Below, piece by piece: positions 61,156 through 63,201 of a DNA stretch of 64,000 bases. The position numbers and the translations under genes were made by a program. The notes under the pieces were generated by a model. The model was given only the letters and a program-made list of their open reading frames with translations. It had not been told where the DNA came from and searched no databases. Numbering within the stretch: position 1 is the stretch's first letter; every line of letters begins with the position of its first letter. The stretch is taken from the NCBI GenBank assembly GCA_029288725.1, contig JARIGS010000023.1, positions 20,582-84,581 of the forward strand, given 5' to 3'. The stretch comes from Candidatus Nomurabacteria bacterium (GTDB taxonomy: Bacteria > Patescibacteriota > Minisyncoccia > Phycocordibacterales > UBA9973).

Positions 61156-63201
61156 ATGAACAGTGCTGCGGCAAAGGATCGCTTGGAAAAACTTCGACAA
61201 CAGATCGCTGATCTGCGTTTTCGCTATCACGTTGAGAATGACCCAACGGTGACGGACGATGTCTATGAGTCACTCTTGCGTGAGGCCAGGGCAATTGAAA
61301 AAGAGTTTCCGCAATTTGCCATCACCCAGGAATTTGACCGTGTGGCCGGTGCGCCGTTAAGTGCCTTTACCAAGGTTACCCACGAGAGTCGCATGCTGTC
61401 ACTGAACGATGTTTTTTCAATTGAGGAATTGGAGCAGTGGAGCGCTCGGATGGAGAAGCTGCTCCCTCCTCCGCCAAGGCTACGGCGGGCGAAGCAGGGC
61501 CTTCGGCATCATTATTTTGCAGAGGTGAAATTGGATGGCTTGGCCGTGACCCTTCGCTATGAGCAGGGGAAGCTGGTGCAGGCTGCAACCCGTGGTGACG
61601 GTTTTGTCGGCGAGGATATTACTGAAAATGCGAAAATGGTGCGGACCATTCCATTGCAGCTGACCGCGCCATTTCCTCCGACTATCACTGTCCGTGGCGA
61701 AATCATTATGCGCAAGAATATTCTTGCGAAACTAAATGACATGCAGGCCAAAAACGGCAAACCGGCATTTGCCAATACCCGCAATGCGGCTGCGGGATCA
61801 GTGCGCCAATTGGACCCATTACTGGTGAAAGAAAGACAGCTGGATTTTTTTGCATATGACGTAGTCGCGTCTGACGCGATGATGGAAACTACCATAAAAA
61901 CGCATTCCCAAAAACACGCCCTACTTCGTGCTATCGGCATGCCGGTCGTAGCAGAGGAGGCAGCCAGCGATACGGTTGAGGGCCTGATACCTTTTATAGA
62001 CATGATTGCCAAGAAACGTGACAGTCTTCCCTTTAATATTGATGGCATCGTCATTAGCGTTGATGAACTTGCATTGCAGGATACGCTGGGCATTGTCGGC
62101 AAGGCACCGCGTTACATGGTGGCATACAAGTATCCGGCTGAACGCGTGACGACCATTGTTTCGAACATCACGGTCAATGTCGGACGTACTGGTGTCCTGA
62201 CTCCGCTTGCGCATTTCACGCCGGTGCTCGTTGCGGGATCAACGGTGTCCAAGGCAACATTGCACAATATGGATCAGATTGCCCGTTTGGATATTCGTAT
62301 CGGTGATACGGTGATCATTCAAAAGGCCGGTGACGTTATCCCTGAGGTGGTGCAGGTATTGAAGGATTTGCGCAATGGCAAGGAAAAGAAATTTGTGATG
62401 CCGAAAAAGTGCCCGGTCTGTGGCTTTGCCGTAGAACAGCGCGCTGCTCAAACGAAAGGAGAGACTGTCGCATTTTTCTGTACGAATGACGACTGTCCGG
62501 CCAAGCATACGCGCGGCATGATTCACTTCGTCCACATGCTCGATATTTATGAGGTCGGACCAAAAATTATTGATCGCCTTCAGGAGGAAGGGTTGGTTGC
62601 CGATGCAGGGGATCTATTTGCCCTGACAGAGGCTGACCTCAGTGGATTGGAACGATTTGGTGAAAAGAGTGCCCAGAATATTATCGCGGCTATTGCCGAG
62701 AAAAAAACGCCACCACTTGATCGATTTATTGCATCGCTTGGTATTGCCAATGTTGGAGTGGAAACAGCCCGTGACATCGCATTGCACTTCGGCAGTTTTG
62801 AAAAGTTCTGGAATGCCAAAGCTGAAGAATTTGAAACCATTCCTAATATCGGTCCAGCCGTCGTGCAAAGCATTGATGAGTATCGCTGCAAGGAATCATC
62901 TATCAATCTGATCAAAAAGCTATTTGAGTATGGAGTAGTGCCGCAGGCCCTGAACGTAGTGAAGGGGGTCTTTTCTGGCAAGACCGTTGTTCTCACTGGC
63001 ACCCTCGCAACTCTCAGTCGCGAAAAGGCCAAGGAAATTATTCAGTCCCAAGGGGGCAAAGTTACCGGCAGTGTTTCAGCCAGCACCAGTATGGTCGTGG
63101 CAGGGGAGAAACCCGGCAGCAAATACACCGATGCCCAGAAACTGGGCGTGCAAATCCTGTCCGAAGATGACTTTTTGAAGATAGTGAAGGGTCTGGTATA
63201 G
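61156..63201 (+). CDS. ligA: NAD-dependent DNA ligase LigA
   Basis: KLDGLAV adenylation motif. OB fold. Cys4 zinc finger CPVCG...C..DC. HhH and BRCT ([10 protein letters not shown]). GC-rich repeat copy embedded at 61462..61507. Confidence 0.95.
61462..61507. repeat. GC-rich hairpin-repeat family copy, in-frame inside ligA just upstream of the KxDG motif (encodes ...[15 protein letters not shown]...)
   Basis: CTCCCTCCTCCGCC-AAG-GCTACGGCGGGCGAAGCAGGGCCTTCGGC. This segment is about 9 aa longer than the corresponding E. coli LigA loop. Confidence 0.55.

Follow-up and report, generated by a model that had tools for sequence, protein, structure and literature searches.

A 64-kb stretch of contig JARIGS010000023.1 from a Candidatus Nomurabacteria bacterium (46% G+C; hereafter the window) carries, within the gene of the 681-aa NAD-dependent ligase LigA (61156-63201), a segment at 61462-61507 that reads CTC CCT CCT CCG CCA AGG CTA CGG CGG GCG AAG CAG GGC and lies directly upstream of EVKLDG. 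This segment is probably one copy of a selfish family of miniature hairpin repeats, similar to repetitive extragenic palindromic (REP) sequences and Rickettsia palindromic elements (RPEs), whose surviving copies would have been filtered by selection. An initial annotation had described it together with in-frame copies in truB, in an amidase gene and in a minor-pilin leader. The sequence, its place upstream of the KLDG lysine, the repeat family and the intact frame of all four named copies were confirmed, and the statements on added residues, on the number of copies and on the palindrome were revised as set out below. L and P numbers denote relatives' sequences used for comparison.

The ligA insertion and the repeat family

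The host belongs to the Nomurabacteria/Paceibacterota within the Candidate Phyla Radiation (CPR); the closest relatives of the window LigA, at 81-83% aa identity, come from metagenome-assembled genomes of Candidatus Nomurabacteria and Paceibacterota, and the gene order pilT-pilC-pilA-pilD-four minor pilins-ligA-gatC is kept in these relatives. Exactly the 30 nt of the ligA copy, the boundaries of which are ambiguous by ±1 nt, are missing in four sister species at this identity (L001, L002, L004 and L019). In L003, a 24-nt insert is found at the identical codon boundary, and as its 3' half aligns with the repeat core at 14 of 17 positions and encodes LRQA for LRRA in the window, a shared ancestral insertion is likely; an independent event at the same site was considered and dropped in view of this alignment. 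When aligned to E. coli LigA (2OWO), gaps open precisely at the repeat site, upstream of the KLDG lysine, and the site varies in length from 0 to 11 residues across 23 CPR ligases, which suggests that the repeat occupies a surface loop.

Read in the orientation used here, the repeat consists of a left module CCCTCCTTCGC(C), a spacer of 3-17 nt, the core GCTACGGCG and (C)GGCGA(A/G)G. A two-module search (CCTyCGC, 0-22 nt, GCTAyGGCG; one mismatch tolerated per module) revealed 13 sites in the window, compared with a mean of 0.95 and a maximum of 5 in 100 Markov shuffles, and the inverted-arm pattern CyTCGC...GCGArG was found at 5 loci, each readable on both strands, with 0.85 expected. The exact 9-mer core occurs six times. 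A strict pattern returned seven copies (~1 per 9 kb); related loci totalling ~2 Mb, among them syntenic regions from species at ~80% protein identity, gave ~12 matches, mostly at chance level. The copies lie in both orientations, in four different frames relative to the unit, within and between genes and at non-orthologous sites, nine of the twelve in Table 1 being inside coding sequence. The repeat has multiplied in the window lineage as a burst, and close relatives are almost devoid of copies at the same loci.

Alignment with orthologues, as suggested in the initial annotation, bore out the lineage-specific nature of the extra residues in LigA, the pilin leader and RecG, where indels of 30, 42 and 27 nt, respectively, coincide with the repeat; the smpB-ftsH spacer adds a further such indel of ~40 nt. 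The four copies first named turned out to be an incomplete census, to which a copy adding nine residues and two further inserts in RecG, two more pilin leaders and the intergenic copies at 29533-29572 and 40156-40275 have to be added. The pilin-2 and pilin-4 leader copies are decayed and common to L003, and the copies in pilin 1 and RecG are specific to the window; the presence of decayed shared copies next to near-consensus window-specific ones suggests that insertion was spread over an extended period. A match inside ftsH at 30328 was rejected, since it encodes the conserved AVAGEAG motif and is due to chance. K-mer surveys over all loci were uninformative, since tRNAs, low-complexity A/T-rich stretches and genomes of high GC prevailed in them; a scan for GC islands was too unspecific at 46% GC, and the GC skew of the window showed no switch to which copy orientation could be tied with respect to replication.

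The family was also found on contigs of uncultivated viruses ranging from 34 to 71% G+C. Scanning IMG/VR with CCTTCGCYAARGCTWCGGCGG yielded 47 loci, and relaxed patterns extended the set to at least 68 distinct copies. The family consensus, yCCkCCTTCGCyAArGCTwCGGCGGrCArG, is ~30-31 nt long, and the window subfamily ends in GCGArG. Column statistics of the viral copies delimit a conserved block of 30 nt (-4 to +25) with sharp borders and random flanks. A hidden Markov model (HMM) trained on the viral copies alone recovered the window copies in the amidase gene (best match, E=1.3e-8) and in ligA (E=3.2e-5). Cultured phage genomes and plasmids gave no full-length match, only partial and insignificant ones, and searching the full text of the literature for the sequence, the encoded peptides and CPR repeats brought up no description of the repeat. 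Some viral contigs carry the unit two to three times (L180/L190 on one contig, L172/L185 on another), and it is embedded there between short local tandem repeats (AATATTCAAT…, GTGTCGGGTG…).

As RNA folding of single copies gave energies no better than those of shuffled sequences (z +0.5 to -1.2), the term palindromic, used in the initial annotation, finds no backing in folding energy, and covariation in the wider family was used as evidence of a hairpin instead. In 68 copies, pair (7,10) is C-G in 49, T-A in 18 and T-G in one, with zero mismatches (Fisher 1.5e-15), and is independent of the neighbouring W position (p=0.75). The pair (-4,21), at unconstrained positions, is T-A in 36 and C-G in 20 copies versus T-G in one and C-A in two (Fisher 1.7e-12), and pair (0,17) has a compensated A-T in four copies and G-C in one. 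The arms yCCkCC and GGCGGr pair with each other as terminal inverted repeats, as do CTTCGC and GCGArG in the window subfamily. The covariation thus supports a hairpin, which has a foot of 6 bp, then a small internal loop and a top helix of 3 bp that closes on AA; its 3' tail is CArG. Four to six of the six reading frames are open in the consensus, and all six in the CCAAGG/GCTTCGG variant.

Table 1. Repeat copies, element E and adjoining genes in the window.
Feature	Position	Strand	Description
truB copy	25934..25968	-	antisense to gene; encodes ASPRHSFSGGG after TDTGDMLG
smpB-ftsH intergenic copy	29533..29572	-	abuts upstream side of conserved TGTATAATG -10 box
amidase/M15 copy	32485..32525	-	antisense to gene; 15 residues between HAYGTAIDINP and GFKWGGDW
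recG insert c (tentative)	36247..36275	+	GC-rich 24-nt window-specific insertion (ARLDSAKR); arm motif CTTCGCC...GGCGAG
recG copy a	36705..36746	+	net +27 nt/+9 aa; KVAPRRDVASGEVGSATW vs KVASNKD---------NW
recG insert b (tentative)	36914..36949	-	CCCCTTCGCC plus GCGTC-AGA-CGCGGC hairpin; FAASDAAQDL, variable loop after NRP
tRNA-Ser(ACT)	40080..40166	+	ARAGORN and Rfam; 3' end is left border of E
element E (87 nt)	40156..40242	+	extended, structured repeat version; begins at tRNA-Ser(ACT) 3' end
short inverted copy abutting E (doublet)	40232..40275	-	arms GGCTACGGCGCG and CGCGCCGTAGC complementary
GIY-YIG nuclease gene (78 aa)	40333..40569	+	directly downstream of E; Pfam PF01541, E=3.7e-10
pilin 1 leader copy (gene from 58763)	58783..58827	+	long-spacer form, net +42 nt
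pilin 2 leader copy (decayed)	59481..59516	+	MKSTFVKNYGETRQA before GFTL
pilin 4 leader copy (decayed)	60686..60715	-	antisense; leader ends before GFAML
ligA copy	61464..61493	+	30-nt in-frame insertion CCCTCCTCCGCCAAGGCTACGGCGGGCGAA, +10 aa, ~13 residues before KLDG lysine

Copies in housekeeping genes and pilin leaders

The initial annotation had the in-frame copies adding roughly 7-15 residues at surface loops, and it called ligA, truB and the amidase gene essential. Such an addition applies to LigA (+10 aa) and the pilin leader (+14 aa), and fails for the amidase (net +1 aa) and for TruB; for the latter two genes, calling them essential was also loose wording. The TruB site is a segment of hypervariable length among 59 orthologues; relative to the closest of them, P0002 (266 aa like the window protein, at 65% identity), the net change is zero, and the shortest are exceeded by 4-7 aa. 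The amidase copy (Amidase_2/M15) can be matched position by position to an equally long loop in 22 orthologues, a loop that is missing altogether in the orthologue P0135. In AlphaFold2 models with a mean pLDDT (predicted local distance difference test score) of 89.6 for TruB and 88.0 for the amidase, the repeat residues are predicted as coil or loop of low confidence: block 111-120 of TruB, at pLDDT 62, is its sole low-confidence internal block, with the other blocks beyond the N-terminal tail at 89 or above, and block 321-330 of the amidase has pLDDT 56. In both proteins, the repeat replaces a variable low-confidence loop and is not an addition. A loop position is thus supported by the models for these two proteins, and for LigA it is suggested by indel variability.

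In recG (35652-37895, minus strand), copy a is missing in 16 relatives, including L081 at 84% identity; its 42 nt occupy the place of 15 nt, and it has the compensated A0-T17 variant that is likewise seen in viral copies. Insert b amounts to ~+8 aa versus the shortest relatives, and other lineages have other inserts at its site. Insert c is missing in nearly all of the 16 aligned relatives, with a shorter and different insert there in L093. Inserts b and c, both GC-rich and specific to the window, are tentatively assigned to the family, c as a degenerate member.

In LigA of L010, L012 and L017, which are more distant CPR lineages, the Zn-finger loop harbours an in-frame variant with GCTTCGGCGG. 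This loop was further seen to hold differing lineage-specific inserts in L007, L009, L010, L012, L017 and L020 (e.g. GPRISEATLGQTISHKSLLHGGP in L007), as does the RecG loop after NRP in L128, L137 and L081 (e.g. EVRASSSAGLAGK in L128). Other repeat families may colonise loops such as these in the same way.

The leader of minor pilin 1 counts 22 aa before the GFTLVE motif, compared with 8-11 aa in its orthologues (MAIKKLQQ, MVIRNAQS, MAIINKQA and MDVIKQKAKER, each followed by GFTL), and this extension from 8 to 22 aa is due to the 42-nt repeat insertion. The Pfam N_methyl motif lies at residues 21-44. The decayed copy in the pilin 2 leader has an orthologous, better-preserved counterpart in L003 (TCCACCTTCATACACTACGGCGCGACGAGGCAG) and is not present in L002, L019, L005 and L007, and that of pilin 4 is orthologous with MKKTLPRRSTAEA before GFAML in L003, with L002 having a short leader without a copy. 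With copies in pilins 1, 2 and 4, three of the four minor-pilin leaders are repeat-derived, so that the reshaping of a secretion leader, as first described for one pilin, was correct and understated.

Two further observations concern the pilus genes of relatives. L001 carries near-identical GC-rich leader segments (…SRSSNAQA before GF) in minor pilins 2 and 4, at 3942-4010 and 5120-5188, which represent either a repeat variant of its own or conversion between both leaders. The PilT orthologue of L002 (3275-4417) is ~28 residues longer than that of the window and of other relatives; the extra residues may be another in-frame insert.

Intergenic copies and element E beside a GIY-YIG gene

With the copy upstream of ftsH, the smpB-ftsH spacer is ~40 nt longer in the window than in L094. 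An ftsH start reading MRRRVYNAL, which would have made this a coding copy, was rejected: the true start, MPKKEPKK at 29588, is conserved, the start of the open reading frame (ORF) within the repeat is an artefact and the copy is intergenic. In three genomes (window 29572-29590; L094; L147), no more than 5-8 nt separate the conserved extended -10 box from the ATG of ftsH, suggesting that the ftsH mRNA is leaderless.

Between tRNA-Ser(ACT) and the GIY-YIG gene, element E has in common with the short unit its left arm, its GCTACGGCG core and its top helix; a longer P1 helix takes the place of the AA loop. Six sequences of E from CPR classes have a mean identity of 81%, and their consensus fold comprises helices P0, P1 and P2 with two covarying pairs, both in P1. 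The covariance model built on E gave 86.6 bits at E as the sole match in the window and scored the short copies at 9-11 bits (E-value about 1-5), so that a derivation of the short repeat from E would follow from module-by-module similarity only; no Rfam family matches E. In all seven genomes examined, the GIY-YIG gene comes directly downstream of E, and the module follows tRNA-Ser(GCT) in L128 and L162, tRNA-Ser(GGA) in L163 and tRNA remnants in L154, L155 and L161. Homologues of the nuclease share 64-86% identity across CPR classes, and all named sources are CPR. Judging from this arrangement, the GIY-YIG gene is a candidate partner of the repeat family. In the compact versions of L162 and L163, E runs straight into the ATG, without a separate promoter, and in the window a SET-domain gene (40578-40973; Pfam PF00856, E=2.9e-12) comes directly after the GIY-YIG gene.

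The tRNA-Ser with anticodon ACT, having A at position 34, was found in the window, in L128 (7066-7151) and in L139 (6376-6463), and is present in most of ~20 related loci with 74-93% identity over the tRNA; A34 is unusual outside tRNA-Arg in bacteria. A normal tRNA-Ser(GCT) is located at 43696-43783. L154 (611-7749), part of the genome of L003, encodes a serine recombinase together with an N6/N4 methyltransferase a few kb upstream of the E/GIY-YIG tRNA remnant, and this region may be an integrated element at the tRNA-Ser site.

Elsewhere in the window, a tRNA-Ile(TAT), which reads AUA directly, was detected at 33706-33780 and in several related CPR loci (L098 5629-5703; L139 18439-18512). Two paralogous small ORFs at 8191-8580 and 24032-24322 are PemK/MazF toxin-like, with a Pfam match for the first only, which lies between tuf/rpsJ and the next ribosomal-protein genes and has a similar ORF in L128 (2704-3093). 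Two further paralogous ORFs with signal-peptide-like N-termini (11366-12394 and 12491-13507) stand amid ribosomal-protein genes, the former matching Pfam PorV of type IX secretion, which is unexpected in a CPR bacterium.

Propagation of the repeat and comparison with known systems

If the repeat is selfish DNA of the REP/RPE kind, an enzyme supplied in trans would copy the unit in the form of a single-stranded hairpin; candidates are the GIY-YIG nuclease beside E or a Y1 transposase of the REP-associated tyrosine transposase (RAYT) type encoded at another place in the genome. Short-tract conversion between copies could give rise both to replacement-type events and to copies that look fresh. 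Copies within genes would pass two filters, the first being a length of ~10 codons with four to six of the six frames free of stops, the second purifying selection, which would spare no copies but those located in loops tolerant of indels or in pilin leaders, which prepilin peptidase removes. The encoded Gly/Ala/Pro/Arg-rich peptides would be passengers and no functional modules.

Several results speak against selfish propagation. No target-site duplication was found at the ligA, pilin or recG junctions and the length of the insert is not fixed (27, 30 and 42 nt), both of which the proposed mechanism leaves unaccounted for. The TruB and amidase copies replace sequence instead of adding to it, which simple cut- or copy-and-paste does not predict, and no transposase, Y1 or other, was found among the 30 window proteins scanned. 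Single copies do not fold better than shuffled sequence, and the covariation was counted in related copies, so that its signal may partly be shared descent. Mobility, furthermore, is inferred from comparison between species only.

The modules shared by E and the short repeats, together with the constant position of E upstream of the GIY-YIG gene after different tRNA-Ser isoacceptors, could also mean that E and its nuclease are autonomous at tRNA-Ser and that the short repeats are internally deleted derivatives, nicked or cut by the nuclease and spread by repair synthesis in a homing-like patch conversion. REP clusters likewise adjoin their RAYT genes (PMC3116915), and GIY-YIG genes are known within CPR rRNA-gene insertions (PMC11270868). 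The nuclease is unusually conserved across CPR classes, and patch conversion would account for the replacement copies in TruB and the amidase. We nevertheless regard this origin as unlikely, as copies of the short repeat are present on viral contigs reaching 71% GC, where neither E itself nor, near the copies, a gene of this GIY-YIG subfamily with its CPR sources was found; L162 and L163 have E and zero short copies in 20 kb each, and the covariance model of E gives the short copies no significant score. No GIY-YIG enzyme is known to transpose DNA, which likewise counts against it. Similarly improbable is the far-reaching proposition that the ~30-nt unit is among the smallest self-propagating DNA elements known, built for life inside genes by its ten codons, its near lack of stops in every frame and its maintained hairpin, and circulating in uncultivated bacteria and their viruses, with E and the GIY-YIG gene forming a tRNA-Ser-anchored module in CPR whose nuclease mobilises it; if the nuclease did so, a GIY-YIG enzyme would for the first time be seen to drive the spread of a repeat.

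The replacement-type copies in TruB and the amidase, the 42 nt standing in place of 15 nt in RecG and the near-consensus ligA copy, the same-site counterpart of which has diverged in L003, would all suit a spread without dedicated mobility, in which double-strand breaks or slipped replication in loops are mended by microhomology-templated copying from GC-rich copies (ectopic gene conversion) and the repeat is passively spread and homogenised. Such conversion leaves unaccounted for the sharp 30-nt borders and the kept pairing in at least 68 unrelated contexts, as well as the clean insertions at sites without evident homology in LigA and the pilin, and we hold it to be quite unlikely.

A functional recognition sequence, such as a type IV pilus/competence uptake signal or the site of another host protein, would accrue via biased uptake and recombination. 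The conserved core with lineage dialects (GCTACGGCG versus GCTTCGGCG) in both orientations, the replacement-type occurrences without length change and the presence of PilB/T/C/D/M, pilins and a ComF-like gene in the window are in line with this. DNA uptake sequences and uptake signal sequences (DUS/USS) have a density of roughly 1 per kb, in contrast to ~1 per 9 kb for the repeat; the similarity spans 30-45 nt with sharp borders and clean insertions, close relatives with the same pilus operon are without copies, and the unit is found in hosts and viruses of 34-71% GC, unlike a species-specific signal. Owing to this density, the clean insertions and the GC range, an uptake signal is very unlikely. 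An artefact or chance similarity, through chimeric assembly, leftover adaptors or convergence among GC-rich coding sequences of low complexity, might be suspected from the metagenomic assembly of the genome and the insignificant folding of single copies, and is held to be extremely unlikely given copies in frame in different genes, orthologous copies in the independently assembled L003 genome, recovery of window copies by the HMM from viral contigs only and 13 observed sites versus ~1 in shuffles.

Among known systems, DUS/USS of Neisseria and Pasteurellaceae share with the repeat a conserved core (9-12 nt), occurrence in either orientation, within coding DNA and outside it, dialects and a host with type IV pili, and differ in the far lower density of the repeat in the window (six exact 9-mers in 64 kb), its longer unit, its clean insertions and its wide GC range. 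The small dispersed repeats of cyanobacteria, such as those of Nostoc, are mobile-looking units of only 20-30 nt, which may be comparable to the present unit in their size and in the embedding of some viral copies in short tandem repeats. 'Very small mobile repeated elements' of Nostoc are mentioned in PMC3116915.

MITEs, or miniature inverted-repeat transposable elements, are likewise non-autonomous and short with inverted arms, occasionally form in-frame fusions and may have a parent element with common ends. Since it lacks a target-site duplication, the repeat is not a classical MITE; its 30 nt are also far under the usual MITE size, and no transposase-bearing parent is known. E with its GIY-YIG gene has sequence in common with the repeat, as would a parent; GIY-YIG enzymes are not among the known transposases, and the arms do not enclose the gene.

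REP sequences are closer to the repeat: it is a short imperfect palindrome within the ~20-40 nt typical of REPs, as seen from the covariation at (7,10), (-4,21) and (0,17) in 68 copies, with a conserved tetranucleotide by the hairpin foot and a density of about one per 8-9 kb. The doublet and extended cluster beside a nuclease-type gene recall the clusters of REP doublets forming hairpins (REPINs) beside RAYT genes (PMC3116915). Whereas REPs are extragenic by definition, the window copies are mostly intragenic; the tetranucleotide is a 3' CArG and not a 5' GTAG, with CTAC/GTAG inside the hairpin, and no RAYT gene was found among the 30 window proteins scanned, the neighbour being a GIY-YIG nuclease and not a Y1 transposase.

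The likeness to RPEs, already drawn in the initial annotation, holds for the behaviour of the repeat. RPEs are ~150 bp long, form ten families and are restricted to Rickettsia; as repeated, palindrome-containing elements they occur in frame in unrelated housekeeping genes as well as in non-coding DNA, contribute an extra peptide where the protein fold can accommodate it and, like the present repeat, lack an identified mobilising enzyme (PMC10969869). In the window, in-frame copies were found in LigA, RecG, TruB, the amidase and three pilin leaders, at sites predicted as low-confidence coil in the TruB and amidase models and of variable length in LigA and RecG, a loop in LigA being deduced from the latter. 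The concept of a selfish hairpin repeat tolerated in frame in housekeeping proteins thus stands, with the amendment that two of the four copies first named are replacements and not additions. RPEs typically measure ~100-150 bp with a conserved peptide of ~30-50 aa, whereas the unit here comprises 30-45 nt and ~10-15 aa; at ~30 nt it is about five times smaller, resides in a CPR host and occurs on viral contigs of differing GC (34-71%), and the two are compared by their behaviour.

In-frame colonisation of housekeeping genes by repeats, treated as a peculiarity of Rickettsia, is thereby extended to the CPR with a unit one-fifth of the size, and this unit is common to a CPR bacterium and uncultivated viruses that differ widely in base composition. 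Odd peptides rich in Gly/Ala/Pro/Arg and spurious small ORFs that recur in the annotation of metagenomes (…RRSFSEGG…, …SLKLRRT…, …FAKATADK…) are explained by this unit, which also provides very small genomes with variation in loops and leader peptides, with E and the GIY-YIG gene at tRNA-Ser as a concrete candidate module for the movement of such elements.

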